Shown piece by piece: positions 8,480 through 42,072 of a stretch of 64,000 bases of DNA. Location: IMG/VR virus record IMGVR_UViG_3300028780_000001, one strand, 5' to 3'. This DNA is from a virus. Made by a program: the position numbers and the translations under genes. Within the stretch, counting starts at the first letter, position 1, and every line of letters starts with the position of its first letter. The notes under the pieces were generated by a model. It did not search any database, was not told where the DNA came from, and saw only the letters and a program-made list of their open reading frames with translations.

Positions 8480-8697
8480 TGAGTCAGTCGCGCAAGGGTT
8501 CGGCGTTCGAGGCGCTAACCAACATTGCAATCGGAATCGTCGTGTCGATGATCGCGAACGCTACCGTTTTTCCGCTTTTCAACTTCCATCCGTCGGGCTC
8601 GCAAAACTTCGAGATTACGGCAATCTACACCGGCATTTCCTTCGTGCGATCGTACCTGATTCGTCGGATGTGGAATTCCATAGGGACAAGGGTCTAA
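8479..8697 (+). CDS. small membrane protein
   Basis: TAATG overlap; two hydrophobic segments. Confidence 0.55.
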   Translation: MSQSRKGSAFEALTNIAIGIVVSMIANATVFPLFNFHPSGSQNFEITAIYTGISFVRSYLIRRMWNSIGTRV

Positions 8698-8699
8698 TC

Positions 8700-8951: not shown

Positions 8952-9247
8952 ATCGAAGCGAAGCGATGGATATTATTCAGCGGTCGATCAATGACGCGAA
9001 GATGAGCCTTCCCTGTTTTCTGGTCGACCTTGGCAAGGTGTTCGGCGGTGCATACGCAGGAATTGCAATCGTGTTCGCGGACAACGAAGACGCTGCAGCG
9101 CGCCTCGTGAACCAGACATACAAAGACGCCCTTCACCTGAACCCGTCTTCGTTCGGCCAGCACACCAACCGCGAGCGTCAGTGCAAGGCTTCTGATTGCG
9201 ATCGCATGGACTCGTCGGTGCCGGGCGCATTTATCGTAATGGGGTGA
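8948..9247 (+). CDS. hypothetical protein
   Basis: ATGA overlap. Confidence 0.5.
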   Translation: MNRSEAMDIIQRSINDAKMSLPCFLVDLGKVFGGAYAGIAIVFADNEDAAARLVNQTYKDALHLNPSSFGQHTNRERQCKASDCDRMDSSVPGAFIVMG

Positions 9248-9251
9248 TATC

Positions 9252-9434
9252 GTGAAAGAATCGAAACGCGTCGACAACCGGGTATTTTGCGATACATGCA
9301 ACAGCTTGCGATCGAAAGACTGCAGCCGGGCAGATTGCGGTATGCGCATCGAGGTTACAGCCGTTCCAAAGGATGATGTCTACTTTATCGCTGAAGGCTG
9401 CAGCGTAACCACACGTAAGGCCATGCTGGATTAG
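9252..9434 (+). CDS. Cys-rich small protein
   Basis: GTG start; CDTC...CSRADC. Confidence 0.4.
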   Translation: MKESKRVDNRVFCDTCNSLRSKDCSRADCGMRIEVTAVPKDDVYFIAEGCSVTTRKAMLD

Positions 9435-9446
9435 GAAGGTGTCGCG

Positions 9447-9599
9447 ATGGACGATTTCGGAACGCTTATTTCGAACACGCCAGCGTACGCGCACGGCGCA
9501 TGCCTTTGCGGTTTCTTCGTGTTTATGATGTGTGCGGAGTGCAACATGTCCGAACACTTTCACGACGAACTGCTTCGCGCGTACGGTGCGATTGAATGA
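9447..9599 (+). CDS. Cys-rich small protein (50 aa, below ORF-track cutoff)
   Basis: AGGAAGG RBS 6 nt upstream of ATG 9447; read by hand. Confidence 0.4.
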   Translation: MDDFGTLISNTPAYAHGACLCGFFVFMMCAECNMSEHFHDELLRAYGAIE

Positions 9600-9766
9600 A
9601 CCAATCGTACATGTTAATGTTCGTTTTTGGCTTCTTTACCGGGCTCGTTGCTGTCGGATGGTTCATTGTATTTTTGTCGCGGTATCGTGAAGTGCAGTTT
9701 AAGAAATTGGAGAATTCGACATGGGTCGACAAACGATTTGGGATGGTCGAGGACTACCCGAAATAG
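9596..9766 (+). CDS. small membrane protein (56 aa, below cutoff)
   Basis: ATGA overlap; MLMFVFGFFTGLVAVGWFIVFL. Confidence 0.4.
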   Translation: MNQSYMLMFVFGFFTGLVAVGWFIVFLSRYREVQFKKLENSTWVDKRFGMVEDYPK

Positions 9767-9996
9767 GCGACGAGGTTCTGTTCGATACGGCTTCGTCTGG
9801 CTGGTGTCGGGGATTCGTAGACCGCTTCGAAGTTGTTAGAAAGAATCCAAGCCAGTGCAAGCATGATTCGTACGCATGGCGGATCGAAGTGCATATGGTC
9901 TGTCGCGATGCCGGGCGCGAGACGTATCCCATGATGCGTTTTCTTGAGGAAGTGTTTCCGCTTACGCATCAAATATTGATCAAGGCGGAGAAATGA
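9721..9996 (+). CDS. hypothetical protein
   Basis: ATG ORF in train. Confidence 0.5.
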   Translation: MGRQTIWDGRGLPEIGDEVLFDTASSGWCRGFVDRFEVVRKNPSQCKHDSYAWRIEVHMVCRDAGRETYPMMRFLEEVFPLTHQILIKAEK

Positions 9997-10268
9997 AGCG
10001 CGACTCCATCCAGGCGCGTGATATCACGCCGGGAATGACCATTGTTCCGCCGATCCGCACCATGCGCCACGCGCTCGTCGAGCGGGTCAGGCGCGATGGC
10101 GACGGGCTCGTGATCGATACGCAAGGCACACCATTCGATAAGAATGACATTCCGCGAAACATGCGCAATCACAACACATCCTATATAGTTCTCGTGACCG
10201 ACATCGGCCTGAAATCTTACGACGCAAACCAGGTCGTTGACGTTCTGGTATATGAACCTCATGGCTAA
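9993..10268 (+). CDS. hypothetical protein
   Basis: ATGA overlap. Confidence 0.5.
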   Translation: MKRDSIQARDITPGMTIVPPIRTMRHALVERVRRDGDGLVIDTQGTPFDKNDIPRNMRNHNTSYIVLVTDIGLKSYDANQVVDVLVYEPHG

Positions 10269-10446
10269 ACCAAGCGGAGGGAGGGGTATTCGTCGGCGCG
10301 GCCTGATATGGGGTCAATCGTTCGAAGGTCCGGGTACGATTGGATACTGTTACATCAAGTGTCTTAAATGCCCCAATGCGACGCAGCGCGACAGACCTTT
10401 GTGTCGGCTGTGCAGTGAGAAAGAAAACAGAAGGCGGATGAAATGA
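10261..10446 (+). CDS. zinc-ribbon small protein
   Basis: CYIKCLKC...CRLC. Confidence 0.45.
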   Translation: MAKPSGGRGIRRRGLIWGQSFEGPGTIGYCYIKCLKCPNATQRDRPLCRLCSEKENRRRMK

Positions 10447-10742
10447 GCGCAACGTATGTGTATTTAGTATCCGCGTACACGTCGCACGAGTCCTGCAATG
10501 TCATCGCATGCTTCTCGCTTGAGCGCGATGCCAAGGCGTTCGCGGATCGCTGCAGAAAGTATGATGAGAAGAAGCCGCATGTTCCTTATCTCAACGAACC
10601 AGACGAAAACTGGACGCGTTGGGAAAAGGCGAACGGGCGCTGGTACGATCGGCATCCGGCGAAGCTGCATTCAGAGCCAGACGCTTATATCGTTGAGGGT
10701 ATCAGGTTGCGACCGGCCGTCATGAAAAAGGTCCCGAAATGA
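10443..10742 (+). CDS. hypothetical protein
   Basis: ATGA overlap. Confidence 0.55.
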   Translation: MSATYVYLVSAYTSHESCNVIACFSLERDAKAFADRCRKYDEKKPHVPYLNEPDENWTRWEKANGRWYDRHPAKLHSEPDAYIVEGIRLRPAVMKKVPK

Positions 10743-11056
10743 ACCTTGATAACGTTTTGGTCGTATCGTTCGAAACGCTCGTCGAGTCTGTACGGCATAT
10801 CTCTATGGACCCGGAGAAGATCAGGATTCTGATTCTTATATCGAAGACAGATAAGCCTCACTACGTCACAAATTGGGACGGAAAGGTTTTGAAAGTTAAC
10901 CCGCCTGTCAGGATGACATGTCCCTTAGACTCTGTTGAGTTTCCATGCAATAACAAGATCGCCACCGAGTTCGATCCGTTGTCGGCGTTGTCGGCGTGCT
11001 TTCGTTGCCGCGCTGTCGTTTGTGCCGTCGACAAAGGTCGAATCTTTTCGGATTAG
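10739..11056 (+). CDS. hypothetical protein
   Basis: ATGA overlap; stop TAG inside cassette repeat. Confidence 0.55.
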   Translation: MNLDNVLVVSFETLVESVRHISMDPEKIRILILISKTDKPHYVTNWDGKVLKVNPPVRMTCPLDSVEFPCNNKIATEFDPLSALSACFRCRAVVCAVDKGRIFSD

Positions 11057-11115
11057 AGTGTTTCCTCTAGGCATGTTAGCGATACACTAGACGCCTAAAC
11101 CAGAAAGGAATCAGA
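11053..11115 (+). promoter_or_regulatory. truncated cassette (repeat + leader, no TCGA boxes)
   Basis: TTAGAG 11053-11058/CTCTAG 11065-11070; TACACT 11083-11088; AGAAAGGAATCAGA before ATG 11116. Confidence 0.45.
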
Positions 11116-11400
11116 ATGTCCGATCCAAGGCAAACCCATCTTCGCTTTCTCCTTGACGCAGAGTACCGTTATCTAGGCGAGCCCATGGCGAAGGTAATAG
11201 ACGACGTTCTGCTTCTGTTGCCCGACCTGGTAGAGGATCGCGACGCGCTCGCGCAGGATGTCAACGCCGGTTTGAGTGAAGAGCACCGCGAGGCACAGAA
11301 GCGCCTCGAAAAGAAGCGCCGCGAGTTCTCGTCTGTTCTCTGTCAGGTCGAGCACCTTCGACAGGTAATCAGGCAGTATTACAGGAACACTTCGATATGA
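11116..11400 (+). CDS. hypothetical protein
   Basis: ATG after leader. Confidence 0.55.
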   Translation: MSDPRQTHLRFLLDAEYRYLGEPMAKVIDDVLLLLPDLVEDRDALAQDVNAGLSEEHREAQKRLEKKRREFSSVLCQVEHLRQVIRQYYRNTSI

Positions 11401-11807
11401 ACAAGACACCGTTTATCACGATGAAGAAGCAGGTTCGCCACATCATACCGGGCGATATCATCGTAAGCTCGACCATGGGCGCCAAGCTCGTTACGTACGC
11501 TGCACGAAGCATTGATGGTAACTTCGTTTTTTTCTTCGGACTGCCTAACGAAAAGGGCGAGTTCGACGACGAAAAGGGGACGGGCAGACGCGTTAGTGTC
11601 GACCGATTTTGGGGCGAAACTGAGTTCACCGTGATCGTTGGCGTTACCCCGACGAGTGCCGAGATTCTGCTTTTGCGAGAACAACTCGCCGCGCGTGATG
11701 CTGCGCTGGACGCGGTACTGAAGCTTGCCACGTCTCAGGCCGGTCCGCTCAATCCGGCCTGCTTCGACATCGTTGCTTTGCTTGATCGGAACGGGGTTCG
11801 GATATGA
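11397..11807 (+). CDS. hypothetical protein
   Basis: ATGA overlap. Confidence 0.55.
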   Translation: MNKTPFITMKKQVRHIIPGDIIVSSTMGAKLVTYAARSIDGNFVFFFGLPNEKGEFDDEKGTGRRVSVDRFWGETEFTVIVGVTPTSAEILLLREQLAARDAALDAVLKLATSQAGPLNPACFDIVALLDRNGVRI

Positions 11808-12190
11808 ACGAGAAAACCACCCCCGTGTCGCGCCGTCGCTTCGAGGTTGAAATTCGTGTTGTCGAAGTCGTTGACAACCCGGCGTACTACGACCCGTACG
11901 CAGAACAAAATTTTCGCTCGACAACGACCCATGATCTTTTCGACGCGGGCAATCCAAAGTTCGGCATGAAGTCAGGGTCGGATGTCCAGAAGACGATCAA
12001 GAAAGACGTCGGATATGCCGAAGTATCGTTCGACTTTAGCCTGTTGGAATTCTCGAAGTACTTGCGCGACGGTGCGATGGAAGCGATGCTGGAAGATCGC
12101 GTAAAGAATGCGGTGTTCGCATGCATCGTCGACAAGTCTTTTGGTATCGTTACGCAGCTTGTCAAGTGGTTTAAAAGGAATCCATCATGA
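11804..12190 (+). CDS. hypothetical protein
   Basis: ATGA overlap. Confidence 0.55.
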   Translation: MNEKTTPVSRRRFEVEIRVVEVVDNPAYYDPYAEQNFRSTTTHDLFDAGNPKFGMKSGSDVQKTIKKDVGYAEVSFDFSLLEFSKYLRDGAMEAMLEDRVKNAVFACIVDKSFGIVTQLVKWFKRNPS

Positions 12191-12417
12191 AAATAAGAGC
12201 CGTTCGCGTGGGCGAGCTTAGACTGGGCGCGATTATTCGTTGGCCGATCGACCAGACGCTCTACCATCGCGTCAAGGGTATCACGCGCAACCCCGGTAAC
12301 ACGGCGCTTGTAAAGGTCGACGGCGGACGTTCTATTGGCTTCTCGATCGACGAGCATGTCTATGTGCTTGAAGACGAACCGGCGCTGATCGTACTGGACG
12401 CTTTACAACTCGGATGA
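12187..12417 (+). CDS. hypothetical protein
   Basis: ATGA overlap. Confidence 0.5.
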   Translation: MKIRAVRVGELRLGAIIRWPIDQTLYHRVKGITRNPGNTALVKVDGGRSIGFSIDEHVYVLEDEPALIVLDALQLG

Positions 12418-12629
12418 CAGTCGACGAGCTTCGAGCCCTGATCAACGACCCGTCTGTTCGCGGTGACCTTGTTGTAATGGTTCCTGACGATATGGCGTTG
12501 TTTGGTGAGTCATCACCCGATGTCGCGCGCGTATCAAGACCAAGATTCTTCATCGGTTCCGACAAGTGCGAGCCCGACGACCCGAAAGCAAACTTCTTCT
12601 ACATCGGACCAAAAGGATTTAACGAATGA
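12414..12629 (+). CDS. hypothetical protein
   Basis: ATGA overlap. Confidence 0.5.
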   Translation: MTVDELRALINDPSVRGDLVVMVPDDMALFGESSPDVARVSRPRFFIGSDKCEPDDPKANFFYIGPKGFNE

Positions 12630-13039
12630 AGCCCAATTCAAACACCTATTTCGGTCGCTATCGAATTTACCTTCGAGAGGCGTCGACCGGTATGTTGATC
12701 GCGCCGTTCAGTCCGCACCTTTGGGATAGATTCATCGACAGCCTGGTTGACGTCATTATGACGCTGGTAACGTTCGCCTTCCTTATTGGGTGTATCTGCG
12801 TCTATCCGGTCGCCGTGGCACTCTTCGCCCTTTTCGCGTGCGAGGGTGACCGACTCAGAGCAAAGCGATACGAAGCATACTTGTCTCGCATGTCGAAGGA
12901 AATCAAGAGTTTCAGCAATGCCGACAAGGTCGAGTTTCTGAGCGTGCCGGACGGGTATTGTGACAAACCAATGGACGATGTGTGGATATGTACTCGCGGT
13001 AGGGGTCACGAAGGCCCGTGCGCGGACGAACGCCCATGA
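12626..13039 (+). CDS. membrane protein
   Basis: Two hydrophobic helices (VIMTLVTFAFLIGCICVYPVAVALFALFA). Confidence 0.55.
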   Translation: MKPNSNTYFGRYRIYLREASTGMLIAPFSPHLWDRFIDSLVDVIMTLVTFAFLIGCICVYPVAVALFALFACEGDRLRAKRYEAYLSRMSKEIKSFSNADKVEFLSVPDGYCDKPMDDVWICTRGRGHEGPCADERP

Positions 13040-13193
13040 CCGATCCCGTCACGGAAGATACGGAGCCGTACCGCTCCCGCGATTTCTTTACATGCGGTTT
13101 ATGCGGCGGCTCTGGCTGGGTGCCTCGCGACCCTGACATCGGAACCGATCAGGAATGTTTCGTTTGCGACGGGAAGGGAGAAGTTACAGATTA
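13035..13193 (+). CDS. DnaJ-type CxxCxGxG zinc-finger miniprotein (52 aa, below cutoff)
   Basis: CGLCGGSG and CFVCDGKG read by hand; ATGA overlap; stop TAG inside cassette repeat. Confidence 0.5.
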
Positions 13194-13289
13194 GAGGCTT
13201 CACTCTAATTTAGTTAGTGACAAGCGTCGACCGCATTCGATATGATTCGTTTGCGGTCGACGTGATCGCGATACCAGAAAGAGATAGAA
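13190..13289 (+). promoter_or_regulatory. early promoter-leader cassette
   Basis: TTAGAG 13190-13195/CTCTAA 13202-13207; -35 TGACAA 13217-13222; TCGA 13226/13236/13256; -10 TATGAT 13240-13245; AGAAAGAGATAGAA before ATG 13290. Confidence 0.65.
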
Positions 13290-13532
13290 ATGTCCGCACT
13301 TTCCGAAATCAACAGCAAGCGCTTCAATCGTGCTTCGCGTTTGTCCTTCAAGTTGATCGATCAGCAAGCCTCGAAGGCTATCGATCCGCGCGTAACGCGC
13401 CGGTTGGCTCGCATCGTTCTTTCCGCGATGCGTAACGGAATTCTCAAAGACGGTTATAAGCCGTCCAACGGTCTGAAGCGTGTCGCTCGCTACGGCCACA
13501 AGCGCAGGGCGCAACCCAAGGTTAATCCGTGA
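13290..13532 (+). CDS. basic small protein
   Basis: ATG after leader; Arg/Lys-rich. Confidence 0.55.
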   Translation: MSALSEINSKRFNRASRLSFKLIDQQASKAIDPRVTRRLARIVLSAMRNGILKDGYKPSNGLKRVARYGHKRRAQPKVNP

Positions 13533-14077
13533 CTTGGGAAACAACCCTTCAGGCTTTAGGTGCGGGCTCGCATTGCGTCGAACTCGCGTCGAGCAACGGG
13601 CGCTTTACCGCGCTCGTGAAGGTAACCGACAAGGGCTTTGTCCACCTGTTCAAGAAGCCCGACGAAGGCGACATGTACACGCCTTGGCTGCTCGTGCGCG
13701 GCGATCGCCTCGAACACCTGGCGAAGATCGAAGTAGAATTGTGGGCGTATCAGAACGCGGAACTAATGCGCCAGTTTGAACAGCCGCAAACGCGTCATTT
13801 TCAAGGATCAATCGTGAGCAAATTTCAAGTAGACCAAATCTGGCGCGCGAAACAACCAGCGAACTCGGGCGGTCTCGTTAATGACCGCGTGATCATATAC
13901 GTCGGTTCGTTCGGGCAGGTCCAGTACGACTCGCCTTCCGTTGCACACGGCCGTCGCTATCCAACCGTCGGCGAAGCCGTGTTCGATAAATGGGCCGGTC
14001 GCCTTATCGAAGAAAAAGAACTGCCTCTGGACGAATGGGCGCCGTGGAACTTTCAGAACAGGGTCGCAAACAAATGA
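13529..14077 (+). CDS. hypothetical protein
   Basis: GTGA overlap start. Confidence 0.5.
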   Translation: MTWETTLQALGAGSHCVELASSNGRFTALVKVTDKGFVHLFKKPDEGDMYTPWLLVRGDRLEHLAKIEVELWAYQNAELMRQFEQPQTRHFQGSIVSKFQVDQIWRAKQPANSGGLVNDRVIIYVGSFGQVQYDSPSVAHGRRYPTVGEAVFDKWAGRLIEEKELPLDEWAPWNFQNRVANK

Positions 14078-14322
14078 AGCTACTACTCGACGGCGAGCGC
14101 AAGGAAGTCCGCGCATCGCGACAATGGTCTATGTTCAAGCACAAAGGATTCAGAGTGACCGCGCATCGGGAAGACTGCGATACGCCTTTCGTCGAGGTTG
14201 AACTTGCGTTCGGAACCGACGTTAAAGACGGTTCTTTGAAGTACCACATGACCGATGTCGAAGCGCTCGACCTGATTGATCGTCTGCAATCCGCCCTTTC
14301 TATTTTGCCTTCGAGTAAGTAG
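14074..14322 (+). CDS. hypothetical protein
   Basis: ATGA overlap. Confidence 0.5.
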   Translation: MKLLLDGERKEVRASRQWSMFKHKGFRVTAHREDCDTPFVEVELAFGTDVKDGSLKYHMTDVEALDLIDRLQSALSILPSSK

Positions 14323-14336
14323 TGAAACGCCCTTCG

Positions 14337-14355
14337 TTTATACGCATCGACTTTG
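14337..14355 (+). promoter_or_regulatory. degenerate copy of TTTATGCGCATAAACTTTG element
   Basis: TTTATACGCATCGACTTTG. Confidence 0.3.
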
Positions 14356-14441
14356 TCGAGAATGGTCTGTACTTCAGCGTATCATTCAATGGTAGAGTGC
14401 CTTAAGGCGTTAATCGCACGCGTTCCCGGAGGAGGTTGATT

Positions 14442-14657
14442 GTGACTGTCGTGACGAAGAAGTTTCCCGAAGAGTGGATGACGCTAGACGGTCGCCGGAT
14501 CGCCGTGTCTGACATGGACGAGGATCACGTACGCGCCGTACTGAACATGATCCTGAAGCGTCGCCGGTTACGCGCACGCTTGCGTCTGGAACTGAAAGCT
14601 CTTGATGAATGGGCCGAAGAATGCATCAACGACGATGCGAAGTGGGGTAAGTCTTGA
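14442..14657 (+). CDS. hypothetical protein
   Basis: GGAGGAGG 14428-14435, GTG 14442 at 6-nt spacing (track start TTG 14436 abuts RBS). Confidence 0.5.
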   Translation: MTVVTKKFPEEWMTLDGRRIAVSDMDEDHVRAVLNMILKRRRLRARLRLELKALDEWAEECINDDAKWGKS

Positions 14658-14851
14658 ACCATCCGTTAGAAGACCTAAGCGTCCATCTGTAAAAGGCCTA
14701 CGTCGATATCGCCGAGGCGTTCAATGCGACGTTTCCGCCGATCGGCGATGCTCATGTAATATCGAAGGTGCGGTCGCTCATGCAGGAGGCTTCAGACAAG
14801 CTCGAACATGCTAAGGGCCTGGTTACGAGTGAGATATGCCGATCGCGTTAG
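14654..14851 (+). pseudogene. ORF interrupted by in-frame TAA (14690-14692)
   Basis: TTGA overlap start; protein-like reading LNHPLEDLSVHL*KAYVDIAEAFNATFPPIGDAHVISKVRSLMQEASDKLEHAKGL...; stop TAG in cassette repeat. Confidence 0.25.
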
Positions 14852-14950
14852 AGCCTTTCCTCTAATTCTCCGCTAGACGCATGTCGACACTTTTCGATAT
14901 TATTCGCTTGCGGTCGACGAAGACCGGGCCTAGAAAGGAACAGAAAGATC
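14848..14950 (+). promoter_or_regulatory. early promoter-leader cassette
   Basis: TTAGAG 14848-14853/CTCTAA 14860-14865; TCGA 14884/14894/14914; -10 TATTAT 14898-14903; AGAAAGGAACAGAAA 14932-14946. Confidence 0.65.
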
Positions 14951-15229
14951 ATGGCGACCATCCAAATCCGCGCGCAAGACCTGAAGATTGGCGACAGGCT
15001 GGTTTTCTCCGCACACAAGACCGTCGAGCTAACCGACGTCGTCAAGGCGCCCACTTCCGGCCGTGTGTACGTCTCCTGGATGGAATCGAACGAGACGCGT
15101 ACCGGCATGATCGAGCACGATTACCACTTCGATTCGTACCTGTCGTTCGCAGCGATTGAAGTCGTCGAGGGCTTGCGCGAGATTGACGCCGACGGCTTCG
15201 CGACGTATCACCTTCCGTTCAAGCTGTAA
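14951..15229 (+). CDS. hypothetical protein
   Basis: ATG after leader. Confidence 0.6.
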   Translation: MATIQIRAQDLKIGDRLVFSAHKTVELTDVVKAPTSGRVYVSWMESNETRTGMIEHDYHFDSYLSFAAIEVVEGLREIDADGFATYHLPFKL

Positions 15230-15256
15230 AATCAAGCGAGCCCGGCGCGAGTCGGG

Positions 15257-15272
15257 TTTATGCGTATAAACT
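15257..15272 (+). promoter_or_regulatory. TTTATGCGTATAAACT element
   Basis: Near-palindrome after GCCCG..CGGGT hairpin; 27 nt upstream of ATG 15299. Confidence 0.45.
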
Positions 15273-15298
15273 CTTCGCTTAACAGAAAGGAATAGAAC

Positions 15299-15703
15299 AT
15301 GAAAACCCTGATTATCGAGCCGTTCAAGCAAATGACCTTCCGCATGCTCCCGTTCGATCGCGTATGGGACTTGGAAATGATCGGCGGTATTCTCGAACTG
15401 ATCGACAGCGGCGTCGGATATTGGGCGGTCGACGAGGCGCCGGAGCCGCACCAATTGCCGTTGCTCTTCGTGCTCACCGAACAAGAGCCATTGAGTGCTG
15501 AAGGTCCGCAAACGCACCGCGTCGACCTGGCGACTGTCGCATGCGGTATCAATCGCATTCTGTCGGGCTCGTGCGAAGTGAACGTCGACGCGATCGGCAA
15601 CATCGCGAAGTTCGTCGCGACAAACGACCTATCGCACGTCGATATCGAAGACATGGACCTGATCGTCCAGGCTGGCGTGTACGGCAAGATCGTGTTCGGG
15701 TGA
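15299..15703 (+). CDS. hypothetical protein
   Basis: AGAAAGGAATAGAAC leader then ATG. Confidence 0.6.
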   Translation: MKTLIIEPFKQMTFRMLPFDRVWDLEMIGGILELIDSGVGYWAVDEAPEPHQLPLLFVLTEQEPLSAEGPQTHRVDLATVACGINRILSGSCEVNVDAIGNIAKFVATNDLSHVDIEDMDLIVQAGVYGKIVFG

Positions 15704-15831
15704 AAATACGCCACCTGAAGAAACGACCGCGACCCGTCGAGCGAGCATGGATTTACGGCGGTCGTTTCACCGTACCAAAAGAGACGGTCGACGCGATCAC
15801 CGCTTGGCTTAAGTCTTTCATTCGCATGTAA
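15700..15831 (+). CDS. small basic protein (43 aa)
   Basis: GTGA overlap; below ORF cutoff as trimmed. Confidence 0.3.
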   Translation: MKIRHLKKRPRPVERAWIYGGRFTVPKETVDAITAWLKSFIRM

Positions 15832-15839
15832 AACCGCGC

Positions 15840-15861
15840 GACTTTATGCGCATAAACTTTG
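15840..15861 (+). promoter_or_regulatory. GACTTTATGCGCATAAACTTTG element
   Basis: Perfect 14-bp palindrome TTTATGCGCATAAA 15843-15856; GAGG RBS and ATG 15873 follow. Confidence 0.5.
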
Positions 15862-15872
15862 AGGTAAGCATC

Positions 15873-16127
15873 ATGGCACGAAAGAAAATGAATGCGGCCG
15901 AACGTATCGCTGCGCTGGTTGAGCGGGCAAAGTTAAATGGTCGTGCGCGTATCACGCTGAAGCGCAACCACAGGCTAGGGTTTAGCCGCGAGGTAGTCGA
16001 GTGCTACCTGTCGGGTACCGTCTACCGAAACGGGCAGTACGTCGGCCGGCGACTGTTTTTCAGTCTTAACGGAAATAGAATCTCCCGTTCTAAGCTGCTG
16101 GGCATCATGATGGATTGGCTTGAATGA
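15873..16127 (+). CDS. hypothetical protein
   Basis: GAGGTAAG RBS then ATG 15873. Confidence 0.55.
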   Translation: MARKKMNAAERIAALVERAKLNGRARITLKRNHRLGFSREVVECYLSGTVYRNGQYVGRRLFFSLNGNRISRSKLLGIMMDWLE

Positions 16128-16537
16128 GCCTCGTCCACGTAAGCGGATACGCGCACGTCAATCCGGTCGACGTCGCCAAGGTCGAGGGGTTTCCTCTGAC
16201 GCTGTCGATCGTCGTCACGATGCGCAATGGCGACGCGCTCACGCGGTACGTCGACGAGAAGGACATCGCCGAACTCATGGAGCCTTCTACGGATGACCCG
16301 GCGACCTGGTCTGAAAGGCAGTTTAATTTGTGGCTTACGATCCACCATCCGAGTATGGGAGACTACACATCAGAGGCGGGCCGAAGATACCAAATGTATA
16401 CGAACAAGGGTCGCCGGATGACCGTGTTCGATTGGGAACTTGAAGCGGTGAACGACCATAAGCCTTGCGTCGACCGCGAGAGCGCGTTTGCCCTTAAGCT
16501 GTCTTCGTACGTGGCGCTTTTTAATCGGGCCAGTTAG
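16124..16537 (+). CDS. hypothetical protein
   Basis: ATGA overlap. Confidence 0.55.
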   Translation: MSLVHVSGYAHVNPVDVAKVEGFPLTLSIVVTMRNGDALTRYVDEKDIAELMEPSTDDPATWSERQFNLWLTIHHPSMGDYTSEAGRRYQMYTNKGRRMTVFDWELEAVNDHKPCVDRESAFALKLSSYVALFNRAS

Positions 16538-16744
16538 AATCATCGACATGCATATTCTTCGAATCCTTTTCGCGCTTGTGTCGCTCCCGTGCGTGGGAAT
16601 GGCTTGGCGCCAACCGCTGATCGATCGACAAAAGTCGACGCGTCGCAATACCCGGCCGGGTCAACTTGATTATGGCTAGGTGATCGCGGTTCGATCGTCA
16701 CGCACGACGGTTGACCGCCGACGACAATCTGACGCCGATAGAAG

Positions 16745-16799
16745 AATCGCCCGCGCTGGACGTAGACCGTTAATCTACTGGCGCGGGCGATTTGCTTTT
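16745..16799 (+). terminator. intrinsic terminator
   Basis: AATCGCCCGCGC 16745-16756 pairs GCGCGGGCGATT 16781-16792, then TGCTTTT. Confidence 0.6.
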
Positions 16800-16905
16800 A
16801 GAGGGATCGCTCTAATTTTTCTGTTTGCGACGTCGAGAAACGTCGATATGATTCGGTCATGGGTTGCAGCACGGAGCCGCGACCGGATAGAAAGGAATAG
16901 AAATC
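16798..16905 (+). promoter_or_regulatory. early promoter-leader cassette
   Basis: TTAGAG 16798-16803/CTCTAA 16810-16815; -35 TTTGCG 16824-16829; TCGA 16833/16843; -10 TATGAT 16847-16852; AGAAAGGAATAGAAA 16889-16903. Confidence 0.65.
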
Positions 16906-17130
16906 ATGTCACAAGCCCAATACCTCGTTGCAGATAAAGCGGTAGAGGCGTATGACGCTTTCGTGTTCACTTCGGTTGGGCGCGAGTTCAATCAGGGCCG
17001 TGCCGACGTTCTGGCTTGGGTTGCTGCGGACGAATGTAAGAAAGCTGCGCGCGACAAGGCGCTGAACCATATGACTCAAATGTATTATCACGAGCAGGCG
17101 AAAAACTTCGTCGCGATCATTGCGGATTAA
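16906..17130 (+). CDS. hypothetical protein
   Basis: ATG after leader. Confidence 0.6.
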   Translation: MSQAQYLVADKAVEAYDAFVFTSVGREFNQGRADVLAWVAADECKKAARDKALNHMTQMYYHEQAKNFVAIIAD

Positions 17131-21191: not shown

Positions 21192-22193
21192 CTACGCTCC
21201 GATTCTTTCAGACAGTAATCCTGTCATTTTCAATGTTTGTCGACCGTTCTCGAATGTCTTAGAGATTTCACGAAGCAAATCTCGACCGTGAATTTCTTCG
21301 ATTCCTATATCACTTCCCGTTAAGTACTTACCCTCGTTCATTACAACGGTGACGCCGGAAGTACTTATTACCGATTTACTATTCGGAGATTCGAGCCACC
21401 CCAAAAACACGTTACGGGTGAAAACTTCAGTCATTCCGCTGTCGATAAGATGCGGCCCATCGAAGTCGATTTCGTAACGGTCGGATTTATATAAACGCTT
21501 GATTCTCCGCTCCACGTCGGCGCATAGTCGACCATCTTCGAAATGAACAAGCGATCGAAGCGGCATAGATAATCCTTCGATCGCACCGAATTGAGAGGCT
21601 CTATTTGCCGGTTCGAAGTTAGTAATTCCAATCTTGAAATTTCCAGGACGAATAATCCCACCTTCACTCAGGAATTCACGAGAGTACAGGAACCCTGGAA
21701 TGTCTGGATTGAACCCTCCCGTACCGCGCTCCATATGGACGCATATCTCGTCAAGCCACCTATTTCTCCACGCAGCGTCGTACGCACTCATTGACCCCTT
21801 CTTAAATTCGTTCCGAGTCCTACACCCCTTAGCTTCCAACCTGCACGTTTCTAATGTCCATGTCGTACGGACCTTTTCCATATGAGCGCATATCTCGTCA
21901 AGCCAACCATTATTCCGCGCGGCTTGGTATATACCACTTGACCCCTTCTGAAATTCGTACCGCGTCCGATACCCCTTAGCTTCTGACTTGCACCTTTCGA
22001 AGGTCCACGCCGTACGGACCTTTTCCATATGAGCGCAGATTTCATCAATCCACCTATTTCGAAAAGCGGCTTGGTATGTACCACCTGACCCCTTCTGAAA
22101 TTCGTACCGCGTCCGATACTTCGCCGCTTCTGACTTGCACCTTTCGAAGGTCCATTTTGCCGGGAGACCCATCCCCTCAAATCCTCGCGTCAA
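21192..22193 (-). CDS. T5orf172/GIY-YIG-like homing-endonuclease-like protein with 3 N-terminal repeats
   Basis: C-terminal GFLYSREF...FKIGITNFEPANRASQF; three 49-aa WTFERCKSEA...ICAHMEKVRT repeats. Confidence 0.6.
   Translation of the reverse strand: MTRGFEGMGLPAKWTFERCKSEAAKYRTRYEFQKGSGGTYQAAFRNRWIDEICAHMEKVRTAWTFERCKSEAKGYRTRYEFQKGSSGIYQAARNNGWLDEICAHMEKVRTTWTLETCRLEAKGCRTRNEFKKGSMSAYDAAWRNRWLDEICVHMERGTGGFNPDIPGFLYSREFLSEGGIIRPGNFKIGITNFEPANRASQFGAIEGLSMPLRSLVHFEDGRLCADVERRIKRLYKSDRYEIDFDGPHLIDSGMTEVFTRNVFLGWLESPNSKSVISTSGVTVVMNEGKYLTGSDIGIEEIHGRDLLREISKTFENGRQTLKMTGLLSERIGA
21714..22154 (-). repeat. 3 x 147-bp in-frame tandem repeat
   Basis: Units 22154-22008, 22007-21861, 21860-21714; long identical nucleotide runs between units 1 and 2. 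Confidence 0.8.
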
Positions 22194-23756: not shown

Positions 23757-23847
23757 TTGAAATCTCGACGGTTCTCGACTACTATCCATATGCCCGGTGT
23801 GCGCCGGGTCCGCTTGTTGCGGTGAACACCAAAAGAAAGGCTTAGAA
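23757..23847 (+). promoter_or_regulatory. cassette-type promoter + leader for helicase operon
   Basis: -35 TTGAAA 23757-23762, 17-nt spacer with TCGA 23765/23775, -10 TACTAT 23780-23785; AGAAAGGCTTAGAAA then ATG 23848. Confidence 0.6.
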
Positions 23848-25047
23848 ATGTCAAATATGAGCGACGTGCCCGGCAAGACCTTTTCGTTCAACGAAGGCCA
23901 GCTAGAAGCAATCCGCCTGATAAAGAAGTGGTATAGCGATTACGTATTGGGGCGCACGACGAAGCAGTGTTTCTTCCTGAACGGCGACGCGGGCACGGGC
24001 AAGACGTCGGTCGCGAAGGCTGCTGCGATCGAGTGCATGGGTGGCGAGTCGATGCTGTACCGCGTCAAGTTCATTGCGCCGACGGGTAAGGCTGCGTCGC
24101 GGCTGCGTCAGAAAGGATGTGCGGGCGCCGGTACGCTTCACCAGTTCGTTTATCGCGTGCTGGGTGAAGACGAAGAGGGCGACCCGCAATTTATGGAGAA
24201 GGTGAAGCACGACGAGAATCCGTCGCTCGTGGTGTGTGATGAGATTTCGATGATCACCGCATACGACTTTGGTACTGTCAGGCGTCGCGGTATTCCCATC
24301 CTGCAACTGGGTGACCTGAAGCAGGTACCGCCGGTCAAGGGTACGCCGTGCGTGACGCATCAGGATGCCGATTACACCCTGACCGAGACCATGCGCCAGG
24401 TAGATGAAAACGGCCAGCCCAAGCCATTGTCGAACATTATCCGGGCTGCGATGTTTCTGAGCGAAGGCAAACAGTTGCCGTGTCGCGAGTATGACGACGT
24501 CCAGGTGCGCGCCGGTATGCCGCCAATCGCCGATCTTCTGGCGCACGTCGACGAGAACGCCCAAATCCTGTGTTCGTACAATTCGACTCGCGTCGGCATC
24601 AACACCGACATCAGGAAGGCGCTTGGATTTGACGGCCCCACGCCGCAAGTGGGAGAAAAGGTAATGTGCTGGTTTAATCAGCATGGCAAGAATTTCATGA
24701 ATGGTGAGCAGGGGATCGTGCTGGGGTATCGTGAGCCCGACACGGAAGAGTGCGCCGAGGGCGACGCGCCGCAAATGCTAATGCTTACACTGCGCTCGCT
24801 CACCGACGGCCGTGAGCGTACGGTAAAGTTCAACCCCCTATCGTTCGACGCGGACGACGCGGTTGCCAAGGAAGCGCTCAAGGCGCCCGGTGGATTCCAG
24901 TTCGGGTATTGCTGCACGGCACACAAGGCCCAAGGTTCTGAGTGGGATCGCGTACTCGTGATCGAAGAGCGCATGGGTGATTACGCCAAGTTGGGCTACA
25001 CAAAGGCTACACGGGCTGCGAAGAATCTTCGCTGGTATCGGCCATAG
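23848..25047 (+). CDS. Dda/RecD-like SF1 DNA helicase
   Basis: GDAGTGKTS Walker A, VVCDEISM, TAHKAQGSEWDRVLV. Confidence 0.8.
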   Translation: MSNMSDVPGKTFSFNEGQLEAIRLIKKWYSDYVLGRTTKQCFFLNGDAGTGKTSVAKAAAIECMGGESMLYRVKFIAPTGKAASRLRQKGCAGAGTLHQFVYRVLGEDEEGDPQFMEKVKHDENPSLVVCDEISMITAYDFGTVRRRGIPILQLGDLKQVPPVKGTPCVTHQDADYTLTETMRQVDENGQPKPLSNIIRAAMFLSEGKQLPCREYDDVQVRAGMPPIADLLAHVDENAQILCSYNSTRVGINTDIRKALGFDGPTPQVGEKVMCWFNQHGKNFMNGEQGIVLGYREPDTEECAEGDAPQMLMLTLRSLTDGRERTVKFNPLSFDADDAVAKEALKAPGGFQFGYCCTAHKAQGSEWDRVLVIEERMGDYAKLGYTKATRAAKNLRWYRP

Positions 25048-25078
25048 TCTGTACTGACGATTCTTGATCAACCCAGCA

Positions 25079-25114
25079 CGGCCCGAAGTGTAGAACAGAA
25101 CCCTCTTCGGGCCG
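25079..25114 (+). terminator. stem-loop (terminator-like, weak U-tract)
   Basis: CGGCCCGAAG 25079-25088 pairs CTTCGGGCCG 25105-25114. Confidence 0.45.
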
Positions 25115-25125
25115 CTATTCAAGGA

Positions 25126-25347
25126 ATGAAAGTGTCGCTAAAATTTCTCAAGGTAAACCCGGAAACGGCAAACATTACCGCTGGCATCGCATTTATTTGT
25201 GCTGTGTTTGCGTTCTCGTTCGGCTGCTGGTACCTGGTGCTATTCAAGCTGTTGCCGTACCTGATTCATCACCTGTCGTTTAGCTGCGCGGCTAGAGTAA
25301 ATCCTCTAGTTACTTTCTCGACGATTGTCGATAAGCTTCGTCAATAG
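25126..25347 (+). CDS. membrane protein
   Basis: AAGGA RBS; two hydrophobic helices; 3' end reads through the next cassette. Confidence 0.45.
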   Translation: MKVSLKFLKVNPETANITAGIAFICAVFAFSFGCWYLVLFKLLPYLIHHLSFSCAARVNPLVTFSTIVDKLRQ

Positions 25348-25376
25348 AATCGACCCAACACAGAAAGGAATAGATC
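25292..25376 (+). promoter_or_regulatory. early promoter-leader cassette (variant CTAGAG/CTCTAG)
   Basis: CTAGAG 25292-25297/CTCTAG 25304-25309; TCGA 25318/25328; -10 TAAGCT 25332-25337; AGAAAGGAATAGA before ATG 25377. Confidence 0.5.
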
Positions 25377-25760
25377 ATGAAAAAGTTCACCCTCTCAGAA
25401 GTGCTAGTAATCGTTATGTTGTTCGCGGCTGTAATGGTCGTCGCGCGCCCGACACAGGCCCATACCGTTTGCGGACCCTACGCATGCCAGCCCGCGCCGG
25501 TGTTCGAGCCGCACGTTCTCGCCGATTATGAGCAGTCGGTCGAAGGGCATCGCCAGCGCATGACCCTGACCGATTTCGCGTGCAACGGGCGCGGTCGCGA
25601 AGCGGTGTTTGTCGACGGAAACCCCAACCATTTCATGCGCGGTTGCTGGTCGAATGGGCCACAGAACATGATCGAGATTGCATGGCCCAATGGCAACGTC
25701 GCTGAAATCCCGTATGGCGAACTGGTTAGCACGCCTTACGGTGAGAAGGTCGGTTTCTGA
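25377..25760 (+). CDS. secreted/periplasmic protein
   Basis: Signal-peptide-like MKKFTLSEVLVIVMLFAAVMVVARPTQA; paired Cys. Confidence 0.6.
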   Translation: MKKFTLSEVLVIVMLFAAVMVVARPTQAHTVCGPYACQPAPVFEPHVLADYEQSVEGHRQRMTLTDFACNGRGREAVFVDGNPNHFMRGCWSNGPQNMIEIAWPNGNVAEIPYGELVSTPYGEKVGF

Positions 25761-25877
25761 ATGGACTTCCTTCACGTTCTCGCCTTTACCGCTGGCGTGT
25801 TGCTCGTAAGCAGGTTCACGGCCGCGCCCGTGTTCGTCGGTATCGTTCTACTGTGCTACGCGGGCGGGTTTATCTGA
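25761..25877 (+). CDS. mini membrane peptide 1 (38 aa)
   Basis: Hand-translated MDFLHVLAFTAGVLLVSRFTAAPVFVGIVLLCYAGGFI; starts 1 nt after upstream stop. Confidence 0.45.
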   Translation: MDFLHVLAFTAGVLLVSRFTAAPVFVGIVLLCYAGGFI

Positions 25878-25878
25878 T

Positions 25879-26019
25879 ATGCGTCGACGCTACCGACCGC
25901 CGTCTGTGTTCGATTGCCTGTTGCTGGTTGGCGGCGTACTACTGATCATCGGCCATAACGTACTGATCGGCCTTGTGCTGATCCTGATTTCTATGCAGGA
26001 ATTTTTCGAGGGAATTTAA
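25879..26019 (+). CDS. mini membrane peptide 2 (46 aa)
   Basis: MRRRYRPPSVFDCLLLVGGVLLIIGHNVLIGLVLILISMQEFFEGI. Confidence 0.45.
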   Translation: MRRRYRPPSVFDCLLLVGGVLLIIGHNVLIGLVLILISMQEFFEGI

Positions 26020-26022
26020 CCT

Positions 26023-26124
26023 ATGTCGGTTATCGTTTTCATCGGCGGTTGCGTGCTCGTCTCGTGCGATCATCCCATCATGGGCGTACTGCTGATCCTG
26101 TGTGCGTTTGGAGTGTTCTCGTGA
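26023..26124 (+). CDS. mini membrane peptide 3 (33 aa)
   Basis: MSVIVFIGGCVLVSCDHPIMGVLLILCAFGVFS. Confidence 0.45.
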   Translation: MSVIVFIGGCVLVSCDHPIMGVLLILCAFGVFS

Positions 26125-26351
26125 AAATTATCGCCACGATCCGCTATCACGCGGACAACGACCCGGACGAAACACCGTTCTCGAACCCTGTCGACGCGAA
26201 TCGCCATGGTGATCGGCTGGCGATCGTCAAGAAAATTCGCGCGCATATGGCAAATGTTTGGGTCTTCGGCGCCGAGCAGCATGTTTACGAACTGACGAAT
26301 AATGACTGGATCGAAATCGTCTCGATCGTGCAGCGAGAAACACCAACGTAA
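26121..26351 (+). CDS. hypothetical protein
   Basis: GTGA overlap start inside ORF 26049-26351. Confidence 0.45.
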   Translation: MKIIATIRYHADNDPDETPFSNPVDANRHGDRLAIVKKIRAHMANVWVFGAEQHVYELTNNDWIEIVSIVQRETPT

Positions 26352-26366
26352 CTCGACAAGTGTCGC

Positions 26367-26396
26367 TTTACACGTTACGCCGGATTAGTTTACAAT
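26367..26396 (+). promoter_or_regulatory. sigma70-like promoter
   Basis: TTTACA 26367-26372, 18-nt spacer, TACAAT 26391-26396. Confidence 0.55.
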
Positions 26397-26426
26397 TCGA
26401 CCCAATGTAATCTATTGGGGTTGATC

Positions 26427-26837
26427 ATGATCGACGAGCAAAAGGCGCGCAAGCTCGAAGCGCTCGAAGAAATTCGACGCATGCGTGAAGAGAACAGAAA
26501 GAAGGATGCCGAAGAACGTCGATCAAACCTGATCAAGAAAGCCAAAGAACGCGACCAGGCCATTCGTGACCGTCACGACCGAAACATAGAAGGTAACCGC
26601 CGTCGACGCGGAGCGATTGGCGTATTCTGGACTAGCAGGGGTATTACCAAGCTTCACCCTTACTCGACGCGGGCCATGATCGTGCGATGGATGCGCGAGC
26701 ACCTTGCCGAAGGGCAATCGATCGATATCGACGAGCTTCACAAGAAGTGCTCGCCCTTCCTGTACGGCGCCAAGATTCGACAGCACCTGGTTCGCCTCGA
26801 AGAGTTCGGCCATATCGAGTACGTATTTAAAACGTAA
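26427..26837 (+). CDS. coiled-coil + winged-helix-like protein
   Basis: Charged N-terminal helix; C-terminal IRQHLVRLEEFGHIEY wing-like segment. Confidence 0.5.
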   Translation: MIDEQKARKLEALEEIRRMREENRKKDAEERRSNLIKKAKERDQAIRDRHDRNIEGNRRRRGAIGVFWTSRGITKLHPYSTRAMIVRWMREHLAEGQSIDIDELHKKCSPFLYGAKIRQHLVRLEEFGHIEYVFKT

Positions 26838-35919: not shown

Positions 35920-35994
35920 GTCGCGTTCATCTAGCGGTTAGGATCACAGGGTTTCATCCTGTTAACACGAGTTCGAATCTCGTACGCGACTCCA
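35920..35994 (+). tRNA. tRNA-Glu (anticodon UUC), CCA encoded
   Basis: Hand-folded cloverleaf: acceptor GTCGCGT/ACGCGAC, D stem ATCT/GGAT, anticodon stem ACAGG/CCTGT, loop GTTTCAT, T arm ACGAG-TTCGAAT-CTCGT. Confidence 0.7.
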
Positions 35995-36034
35995 AAGAGC
36001 CCTTAAGAGAATTTATAGAAAGGATCAGAAATGT

Positions 36035-40457: not shown

Positions 40458-41341
40458 GCGAATTTCAGTGGCGAAAGCCCATGAAGGCCGAAGACTTCGT
40501 CGACGAAGCCCTTGTGTTTCCGTATTACGCGTCGGTCAAGCTCGACGGTTACCGGACCATCGTCGACGAATGTATCGCGCGCACATCGAGCGGCGCTCCG
40601 ATCGGTAATGATTTCGTCCGCGATTTCCTGTCGCACGAAAGCCTTGAAGGGCTCGACGGCGAACTGATCGTCGGAGCATGGAACGACAAGCGCGCGTTTC
40701 ACAACACCAGCGGCCCGGTTCGACGGAAGCACGACAATCCCGATTTTCGCCTGTTCCTGTTCGACGATCGTACGCGGCCGGGCGATACGTTCTCGACACG
40801 CTTCAGCATGCTTAAGCATCGCGTATCGGTGATCCAGTCCAGGCACAAACGCCCGATCGAAGCGCGAATCGAAGTTATCCCGCAAACGCTGATATATAAC
40901 CGGGAAGAATTATCCCGCTTCGAAGAGTCCTCGATTATGGGCGGTTTCGAAGGCGTCATGCTTACGCACCCTGAAGGGCATTACAAGTTCGGTCGTTCGA
41001 CGTTGAACGAGAACCTTCGACTAAAGGTGAAACGTTTTATCACCGAAGAGGCGCAAATCGTCGGCTACGTCGAGCAGTTACGCACGCCTGAAGGTGGCAT
41101 GATCGCTAACGAGCATACCGGAATGGTTGGCGCGTTCAAGGTGCATTCCGCGAAGTGGGGCGATTTCGACATTCAGGCGACGTCGCTTTCTTTCAAAGAG
41201 CGCAAAGAGGCATTCGACAATTTCGGCGCGATGTACAACCGCCAGATTGCATCGTTTGAATACTTCCCGCATGGCACGATTGACCGGCCGCGCCATGGCA
41301 TTTTCCGGGGAATCCGGGGCAAAGAGGACATGGCAGAATGA
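40454..41341 (+). CDS. ATP-dependent DNA ligase
   Basis: Motif I VKLDGYR, III LDGELIV, IV FEGVMLTHP, V LRLKVKRF. Confidence 0.8.
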   Translation: MSEFQWRKPMKAEDFVDEALVFPYYASVKLDGYRTIVDECIARTSSGAPIGNDFVRDFLSHESLEGLDGELIVGAWNDKRAFHNTSGPVRRKHDNPDFRLFLFDDRTRPGDTFSTRFSMLKHRVSVIQSRHKRPIEARIEVIPQTLIYNREELSRFEESSIMGGFEGVMLTHPEGHYKFGRSTLNENLRLKVKRFITEEAQIVGYVEQLRTPEGGMIANEHTGMVGAFKVHSAKWGDFDIQATSLSFKERKEAFDNFGAMYNRQIASFEYFPHGTIDRPRHGIFRGIRGKEDMAE

Positions 41342-42072
41342 CAGTGAAACTTACAACCGATATTCTGGTTGCTGGCTGCGGCTCTTCGACGGCACTTGCC
41401 GGGCAATGGCTCGCCGCGATTCAGGCCGCATGCGATGCGCAAGGTATCAGCAACAGCGCTTCAAGCACCGCTGCGTTTCTCGCGAACGTCGGTGTAGAGT
41501 CGATGGGCCTGACGAACCTTGCGGAGAACCTGAACTACACGGCGGTTCGTCTCGCCCAGGTATGGCCGCAGCGTTACGCCGTGAGCCCGCAAACAGACAC
41601 CAAGATTCCGAACAATCTCGCCGTGCTACTCGCTGGTCAGGGCCCACAAGCGATCGCGAACGATGTGTACGCTAACCGCATGGGGAACGGCCCGGCATCG
41701 AGCGGAGACGGCTGGAATTATCGTGGTCAGGGTTTGATTCAGTTGACCGGGCGTGCGCAGTATATGAATTTTTTCGCGGCCATCGACGTACCGTTGAACA
41801 CCGATACGTCAGAACTGCAAACGACCGAACTGGGCGCGTCGTCGGCCGCGTGGTTCTTTGTTGATAGCGACGCGAACGACGCGGGTATTCAGGGGGACTT
41901 CGATACGACCGTCCAGAAGATCAACGGCCAGCCGCCATGCGCGGGTAACCAGGGGTCGCTGCGACAGGCGCGCTACGCGGCTGCGTTACCGCTATGTTCA
42001 GCAGCGAATATTGTTGCGAAGAGTCAGTCGACGAAGAAAACCCAAACCACGCCCCCAGTCCCGCAACAATAG
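41338..42072 (+). CDS. GH19 chitinase-like endolysin
   Basis: NYRGQGLIQLTGRAQY and ANVGVES motifs. Confidence 0.75.
   Translation: MTVKLTTDILVAGCGSSTALAGQWLAAIQAACDAQGISNSASSTAAFLANVGVESMGLTNLAENLNYTAVRLAQVWPQRYAVSPQTDTKIPNNLAVLLAGQGPQAIANDVYANRMGNGPASSGDGWNYRGQGLIQLTGRAQYMNFFAAIDVPLNTDTSELQTTELGASSAAWFFVDSDANDAGIQGDFDTTVQKINGQPPCAGNQGSLRQARYAAALPLCSAANIVAKSQSTKKTQTTPPVPQQ

Follow-up and report, generated by a model that had tools for sequence, protein, structure and literature searches.

Three Hydrophobic Mini-Genes at One Phage Locus

The sequence analyzed here is a stretch of 64,000 nucleotides (nt) from a virus, IMG/VR record IMGVR_UViG_3300028780_000001, which is referred to in its full length as the window and has a G+C content of 55%. 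At positions 25761 to 26124, its plus strand carries three very short open reading frames (ORFs) in tandem, named m1, m2 and m3:

25761..25877, plus strand: m1, 38 residues, MDFLHVLAFTAGVLLVSRFTAAPVFVGIVLLCYAGGFI; hydrophobic blocks at residues 6-17 and 24-38, separated by the polar break S-R-F-T-A-A-P
25879..26019, plus strand: m2, 46 residues, MRRRYRPPSVFDCLLLVGGVLLIIGHNVLIGLVLILISMQEFFEGI; basic N-terminus MRRRYRPP, hydrophobic stretch at residues 10-39 broken by G-H-N, acidic tail
26023..26124, plus strand: m3, 33 residues, MSVIVFIGGCVLVSCDHPIMGVLLILCAFGVFS; two hydrophobic blocks with an invariant C-D-H-P break

A first-pass annotation had proposed the three ORFs, and their positions, peptides and spacing were recovered by reading the sequence and by listing all ORFs of at least 20 residues over 24900-26700. 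The TGA of the upstream gene sp127 (25758-25760) abuts the ATG of m1 with a gap of 0, m1 and m2 are separated by 1 nt, m2 and m3 by 3 nt, and the TGA of m3 overlaps the GTG start of the downstream gene g76 at 26121 (GTGA). Purine runs resembling Shine-Dalgarno sequences lie ahead of each start (GAGAAGG, GGGCGGG, GAGGGA, GGAG). The ORFs had also been called missing from the ORF track. They are real, but their absence from the track is due to its length threshold only and they are not unannotated: JGI/IMG, ENA and Logan already list the exact m1-m3 sequences as called genes (about 48 contigs, up to 73.5 kb), with m2 called either at 46 residues or at 37 residues from a GTG at 25906.

The hydrophobic nature ascribed to the peptides was borne out by their grand average of hydropathy (GRAVY), which was 1.75 for m1, 1.09 for m2 and 2.05 for m3. 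Values above 1.0 were found for only 11 of the 420 ORFs of 28-60 residues in the window, and three of these 11 are the adjacent m1, m2 and m3. When the 364-nt stretch was shuffled with dinucleotide content preserved, only 2.6% of the shuffles could be tiled to at least 340 nt by ORFs of at least 30 residues. The sequence is best explained if m1, m2 and m3 each encode a small protein translated on its own and occupy the middle of a five-gene accessory operon, sp127-m1-m2-m3-g76.

Coding Status and Selection across Lineages

The window was compared with four related metagenomic lineages, i.e., L005 (about 95% nt identity), L006/L007 (about 80% nt identity), L030 and L032/L033. Wherever a mini ORF is present in L005, L006/L007, L030 or L032, its length is exactly kept, with no insertion or deletion. 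Frame-breaking changes in related genomes, which the first-pass annotation had named as evidence that would speak against it, were absent from the lineages examined.

The ratio of nonsynonymous to synonymous substitution rates (dN/dS) after Nei and Gojobori was 0.00 and 0.11 for m2 and 0.04 and 0.18 for m3, while both alternative frames gave values above 1. Changes in m2 amounted to 0 nonsynonymous and 6 synonymous against L005, and to 9 and 19, respectively, against L006. When the three ORFs were pooled, 17.5 synonymous and 4.5 nonsynonymous changes separated the window from L005, at a neutral synonymous share of 0.26 (binomial P = 7e-8). The triplet is thus conserved with synonymous-biased substitution, clearly so for m2 and m3; the bias of m1 is not significant. 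On the basis of purifying selection and frame conservation across lineages, the claim that these ORFs are genuine coding genes was upheld, m2 and m3 being certainly and m1 very probably coding.

The identity of m3 was 73-82% among window/L005, L006 and L032, with dN/dS, or the ratio of the proportions of nonsynonymous and synonymous differences (pN/pS), at 0.04-0.29. The replicative helicases of these phages are 72-82% identical (window-L032 73%, window-L006 82%), the helicases of L030 and L032 both being about 73% identical to that of the window, and the neighbouring 136-residue proteins are 39-62% identical. Hence, m3 and the helicase are conserved to about the same degree between lineages, which is a striking constraint for a peptide of 33 residues.

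By comparison, m1 evolves faster than m2 and m3, with an identity of 37-53% and a pN/pS of 0.27-0.87. It has exactly 38 codons and lies directly 3' of the sp gene in five lineages. Its alignment took in four of the five lineage sequences, and the invariant positions after the initiator (D2, H5, A8, G12, L14, G27, L30, A34 and G36) were read from all five. An [ST]-[RK] pair is also conserved, and in most lineages acidic residues of the loop come after it.

Translational coupling had been proposed for the three cistrons. The geometry fits this proposal: in L032 the junctions sp-m1, m1-m3 and m3-g98 (g98 being a 98-residue homologue of g76) are TAATG stop/start overlaps, and so is the sp-m1 junction of L030. 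Coupling itself is inferred from this arrangement.

Relationship between m1, m2 and m3

The two-part hydrophobic pattern reported to be shared by the peptides is visible in their alignment, where a hydrophobic block with G-[VC]-[LV]-L is followed by a polar break and by a block with a G and a run of L/I/V. In composition-preserving shuffles, p values of 0.0025 (m1-m3), 0.0105 (m2-m3) and 0.036 (m1-m2) were obtained, and unrelated hydrophobic or transmembrane controls gave no signal in this test. Profile comparison with hhalign yielded P = 2e-4 (probability 45%) for m1-m3, P = 1.5e-4 (52%) for m2-m3 and P = 0.025 (2%) for m1-m2. In a six-frame profile search of all sequence in the analysis, the first non-self matches of m3 and m2 were other members of the set.

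The number of mini-genes at the locus differs between lineages. L030 carries m1 only and L032 carries m1 and m3, m2 being absent from both, while the window, L005 and L006 carry all three. Together with the shuffle and profile statistics, these one to three copies make it plausible that the peptides are paralogues, as had been suggested. Tandem duplication in the order m1, then m3, then m2 would be the simplest history; it is favoured at only somewhat better than even odds, since the statistics are modest for such short hydrophobic sequences.

No further family members were found in profile searches of 1.84 and 5.8 billion proteins, and no relatives were found in IMG/VR scans with the m3 and sp profiles or in 185,579 species genomes scanned with the m3 profile. 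A solitary m3-like gene of 32 residues (MESILFIVGIVLCFNRHPVIGVILILIAMGPS) was seen at 504-602 of L031, an unrelated 2.5-kb contig of overlapping small ORFans; its product is 53% identical to m3, with the core H-P-[VI]-[IM]-G-V, and no secreted-protein neighbour was seen. Within the window, the best non-family match of the m3 profile (E = 0.084) is a cassette-driven small gene at 6090-6269 (about 59 residues, ATG at 6090), whose C-terminal hydrophobic segment AILFIVGCALVGLLVPLCGVLCF resembles m3 and which may be a distant relative. A 51-residue hydrophobic ORF of L003 and TM73, a hydrophobic ORF upstream of sp127, were also considered as relatives of the mini-genes and were rejected, their similarity being no more than compositional in the shuffle test.

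Membrane Character of the Peptides

An AlphaFold model of m2 consists of one continuous helix over residues 10-45, with a predicted local distance difference test score (pLDDT) of 81. The hydrophobic stretch of m2 comprises 30 residues, interrupted by G-H-N. Membrane insertion energy was estimated as a simple sum on the Hessa scale, and by this estimate a favourable insertion window of 19-23 residues exists in m2 only. The breaks between the blocks are of the type S-R-x-x-E-E-P in m1 and C-D-H-P in m3. Because neither m1 nor m3 has a favourable 19-residue window, each would either form a short hairpin or re-entrant helix or depend on a partner for its seating in the membrane. The two-part design is therefore a correct description of the sequences, but hairpins are not established, given the single helix modeled for m2 and the shortness of the m1 and m3 blocks.

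Neighbouring Genes and the Repeated Cassette

The following features surround m1-m3:

25080..25113, plus strand: post-helicase hairpin, GGCCCGAAG-N16-CTTCGGGCC, left island boundary; the region 25045-25130 folds with -25.8 kcal/mol (z = -2.6)
25126..25347, plus strand: TM73, hydrophobic ORF of 73 residues, GRAVY 0.86; its last approximately 20 codons are cassette sequence
25292..25309, plus strand: hairpin of the cassette, CTAGAG-N6-CTCTAG with a T-rich run after it; its counterparts in the early-region cassettes, with which it aligns, read TTAGAG..CTCTAA
25317..25354, plus strand: promoter-like core, CTCGAC-GATTG-TCGATAAGCTTCG-N-ATCGAC, with the TTCGATAWKATTC motif at 2 mismatches; putative promoter
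25362..25374, plus strand: ribosome-binding site (RBS) box of the cassette, AGAAAGGAATAGA, 2 nt 5' of the sp127 ATG
25377..25760, plus strand: sp127, first gene of the unit, 127 residues, N-terminal signal peptide (..ARPTQA/HT) and conserved Cys-containing C-terminal domain
26121..26351, plus strand: g76, last gene of the unit, soluble acidic protein of 76 residues; its GTG start overlaps the m3 stop
26367..26396, plus strand: sigma-70-like promoter of the next gene, TTTACA-18-TACAAT, 10/12 matches; right island boundary

In line with the cassette-driven operon of the first-pass annotation, a repeated cassette, comprising the hairpin, the promoter-like core and the RBS box, precedes the signal-peptide gene, the RBS box being directly 5' of it. 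The TTCGATAWKATTC motif has 17 matches in the window versus 5.5 expected. The promoter-like core, a box of the form GTCGAC..TCGATAAG.TTCG..TCGAC, aligns with cassettes at 4.4, 6.0, 14.9 and 16.8 kb. For AGAAAGGAAYAGA, nine copies were counted in the window versus 0.08 expected, i.e., seven at 1.9-17 kb, one at 36.0 kb and one before sp127. The RBS box upstream of the sp gene is kept in L005, L006, L030 and L032. The cassette is probably a unit of terminator, promoter/operator and RBS.

Left-end cassettes are found at 1950-17000 of the window (e.g., 4377-4476, 6000-6090, 14848-14946 and 16798-16903) and at 36012-36031, in intergenic positions among small genes. In order, they consist of a hairpin TTAGAG-N6-CTCTAA with a T run, the element GTCGAC-N5-TTCGATAWGATTCG-N-GGTCGAC and, immediately ahead of the start codon, AGAAAGGAAYAGA. 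The sole tRNA gene of the window, for tRNA-Glu (anticodon TTC; 35920-35994), is closely followed by a cassette-like RBS at 36017.

The same annotation had placed the 73-residue membrane protein within the cassette-driven operon, which does not hold: the cassette lies inside the 3' end of TM73, and TM73 is therefore upstream of the cassette-driven unit and not in it. TM73 has homologues of 53 residues in L030 and L032 and is absent from L006; between the window and L005 its pS is 0.112 and its pN 0.024. At the position of the post-helicase hairpin, a hairpin of another sequence is found in L006.

The sp gene precedes m1 in every lineage, with homologues of 129 residues in L006, 198 residues in L030 and 196 residues in L032. 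The conserved cysteines of the family lie in its C-terminal domain, and dN/dS of sp127 against L005 is 0.03. The AlphaFold model of sp127 (pLDDT 51) was too poor for fold comparison. The conserved core of the module is an sp gene followed by m1, i.e., the secreted protein and m1 occur together in every lineage with the module. For g76, a 98-residue homologue is present in L032 and a 26-residue remnant in L030. The gene is precisely deleted in L005, with its first five codons kept (window 26121-26351 versus L005 4134-4160), and is absent from L006 (3019-3040) and L007. The sigma-70-like promoter downstream of g76 is conserved in L005, L006, L030 and L032.

The Phage and the Insertion Site

A nucleotide search of 50,697 cultured phage records, near and distant, gave no match, and a tblastn search of cultured phages with sp127 and an m3 variant gave none either. 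The DnaE-type polymerase shares 56% identity with its counterpart in Pseudomonas PB1-like phages (Pbunavirus), and the Dda/RecD-like helicase is at most 53-56% identical to the helicase of Luteibacter phage Pluto. With these identities and no cultured nucleotide match, the sequence points to an uncultured, distant PB1-like phage of about 73 kb, which is presumably contractile-tailed. The phage was assembled in at least 65 collection blocks, and several samples agreed in every base of the 5.1 kb that were compared.

In a rough gene map, small plus-strand genes at 0.5-17 kb are followed by a minus-strand primase block, a plus-strand replication block at 23.8-42.5 kb and minus-strand structural genes. 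The m1-m3 module lies inside the replication block. The endolysin gene (41338-42072; phrog_181, E = 1e-54) is 15 kb away from it. In Pbunavirus Pa193, Pluto and most metagenomic relatives, the helicase gene is directly followed by a phrog_4765 gene, the homologue of window 26427-26837, and the module is absent from Pbunavirus, Pluto and L001-L003. A metagenome scan with a helicase profile found only distant relatives (33-56% identity), and the module was lacking in all those examined. Other inserts occur at the same spot downstream of the helicase, namely a GIY-YIG-like ORF in L010 (5139-5879), a lipoprotein-like ORF of 169 residues with an LTSGC lipobox in L001 (7350-7859) and, in L003 (7157-7312), the 51-residue ORF mentioned above, with two canonical hydrophobic segments and unrelated to m1-m3. 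Because helicase and phrog_4765 genes are directly adjacent elsewhere and the inserts vary, the module is an accessory insertion specific to certain lineages, at a hot spot that lies between the helicase gene and a conserved gene.

Three further observations were made in the window. The mechanical ORF of the helicase (23797-25047) starts with GTG at 23797 and has 416 residues, while public calls and relatives start at ATG 23845 (399-400 residues). In the minus-strand block at 21730-22170, three tandem direct repeats of 147 nt (80% and 69% identity to the first) suggest a repeated protein unit of 49 residues. In the minus-strand structural block at 53004-53881, diverged direct repeats of 45-84 nt with a spacing of 117-162 nt suggest a repetitive structural or fibre protein.

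Proposed Function and Alternatives

No significant family was found for any module gene in Pfam, PHROGs, NCBIfam or PADLOC, and a sequence-profile search of the PDB with the sp family returned nothing. When m1-m3 and sp127 were compared with Pfam, PHROG and NCBIfam at E up to 1-5, no similarity to the T4 proteins Imm or Sp appeared. A search of the literature on tandem small hydrophobic phage paralogues found nothing specific. An envelope-directed accessory role would fit the module, since a secreted protein is combined with tiny hydrophobic peptides, the genes form an island under an early-type cassette, m2 and m3 are strongly constrained and the lysis genes are distant.

In the mechanism proposed here, termination-reinitiation would carry ribosomes from cistron to cistron and thereby yield roughly equal product amounts. 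The peptides would be embedded in the inner membrane of the host, m2 as one long helix with its N-terminus inside and m1 and m3 as short kinked or hairpin helices, and would associate with each other and with the periplasmic domain of sp127. By tandem duplication, m3 and then m2 would have been derived from m1. In the most speculative step, the complex would act on the envelope of the infected cell, the best guess being that it blocks genome entry of superinfecting phages, like T4 Imm and HK97 gp15. The picture of genes, operon and membrane complex as a whole is given a probability of about 0.6. Superinfection exclusion as the specific function, which is suggested by analogy, is tentative and less likely than not. 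A more far-reaching version, judged rather unlikely, is a novel hetero-oligomeric inner-membrane complex of the sp127 domain and the three peptides, its subunits grown from one to three by tandem duplication, which would serve as a tape-measure-capturing immunity device or as a viroporin-like or metal-binding channel. A His and an Asp are conserved in each peptide, and C-x4-C-D-H-P is invariant in m3.

Several points weigh against the overall picture. With blocks of only 12-15 residues and no favourable 19-residue window, membrane spanning of m1 and m3 is not assured. The paralogy statistics are modest (hhalign 45-52% for m1-m3 and m2-m3, 2% for m1-m2), and hydrophobic peptides inflate similarity scores. 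Taken alone, m1 fails the test for synonymous bias (P = 0.12-0.21), and its start codon in L006 is TTG. Translation of m1-m3 is deduced from the sequence comparisons. The promoter role of the cassette and its early timing are suggested only by its repetition in the left-end small-gene block, and the link to superinfection exclusion is one of analogy, with no family homology to Imm, Sp, gp15 or others.

The ORFs might also not be independent products at all. They could be remains of a decayed larger membrane gene, parts of readthrough fusions (sp127-m1 and m2-m3) or upstream ORFs regulating g76, and in the window sp127 and m1 share one frame, split only by a TGA, as do m2 and m3, split by TAA-CCT, while m3 overlaps the start of g76. 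However, the TAATG junctions of L030 and L032 place the neighbours in different frames, so that fusion cannot be the conserved mode, and the readthrough or decayed-gene reading was rejected on this ground. Moreover, a separate start and stop are kept for each ORF in every lineage, strong purifying selection acts on m2 and m3, and the mini-genes stay in L005 and L006 even though g76 is deleted there. Non-independence is extremely improbable as a consequence. A role of the peptides in lysis timing, as holin-, pinholin- or antiholin-like proteins with sp127 as a periplasmic regulator like T4 RI, would agree with small hydrophobic proteins, with the charged ends of m2 and with an adjacent gene for a periplasmic partner. 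It is nevertheless very unlikely, and a lysis cassette was rejected on position: the endolysin gene lies 15 kb off in another gene block, and the cassette is that of the left-end small genes rather than a late context. Known holins are larger than m1-m3, and no lysis PHROG was matched.

Two other explanations keep the peptides in the membrane and change their target. They may modulate or poison a component of the host inner membrane (a transporter, sensor kinase, protease, or the division or respiration machinery) and so serve host takeover without phage exclusion. The conservation of m3, which exceeds that of some core genes, suggests that it has a specific binding partner that is itself conserved, the unit carries an early-type cassette, and many characterised small membrane proteins regulate larger membrane proteins (PMC12648545). 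Against this, Pfam and NCBIfam gave no homology to a characterised small regulator, the obligatory pairing with a secreted protein is atypical of such regulators, and the module is dispensable across the phage group; host modulation is accordingly regarded as doubtful. The module could instead be an anti-defence island directed at a membrane-associated host defence, e.g., an abortive-infection effector. The variable hot spot with different accessory genes in different relatives speaks for it, and lineage-restricted distribution and change in copy number are typical of arms-race genes. Yet PADLOC and the other libraries gave no match and the selection on m2 and m3 is purifying, not diversifying, and an anti-defence function is considered unlikely.

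Phage genomes are rich in small hydrophobic ORFans, which are mostly passed over. The proposed envelope-directed operon contains a microprotein family that has apparently expanded in place, from one to three cistrons, and is still coupled to a secreted partner. It offers a compact, testable candidate for an envelope-acting function, be it exclusion, takeover of the host membrane or anti-defence. The genes are also a useful example for small-gene annotation; they overturn nothing known and are a new family of a familiar kind, which will not surprise phage specialists.

Comparison with Known Systems

The nearest analogy is with small phage-encoded membrane proteins that are made in infected or lysogenic cells. 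Imm of T4, a membrane protein of 9.3 kDa, binds the tape measure protein of an incoming contractile-tailed phage, and the same has been proposed for HK97 gp15 (bioRxiv 10.64898/2026.03.06.709160). T4 pairs the inner-membrane Imm with the envelope-directed Sp; a comparable pairing in the window may be that of the hydrophobic peptides, those of m1 and m3 with short blocks of 12-15 residues, and the signal-peptide protein sp127. In contrast, there is no sequence similarity, the peptides have 33-46 residues versus 83-94 in Imm, and the window has three putatively paralogous cistrons plus a secreted protein.

The bacterial small proteins AcrZ, KdpF, MgrB and CydX resemble m1-m3 in having 30-50 residues, one hydrophobic helix (compare the AlphaFold model of m2) and strong conservation despite their size. 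They are chromosomal and single-copy, and usually lie beside their target operon. Unlike them, m1-m3 are carried by a phage, occur as tandem copies and are coupled to a secreted protein, and they have no NCBIfam or Pfam matches.

Holins and pinholins (S21 68) are likewise small phage proteins with two hydrophobic segments and charged ends. They differ from m1-m3, which are not beside the endolysin gene, are half the size or less, stand in another gene-block context and match no lysis PHROG. Typical holins have at least one full transmembrane domain and about 60-150 residues, whereas m1-m3 have 33-46. Type I toxin-like peptides (Hok, Ldr, TisB, Ibs) are marked by a transcript of their own with a cis-antisense RNA, or by a known RNA family, which is not the case for m1-m3; these are internal cistrons of an operon with coupled geometry, and Rfam gave no match in 24900-26600 at E up to 1.

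Among phage families, phrog_10874 comes nearest. It is also a family of short hydrophobic phage ORFans, and the best hits of m2 and m3 fall in the same region of its profile at non-significant values (E = 0.098 and 0.32). With scores far below significance, a length of 69 positions and no known function, it differs from m1-m3.

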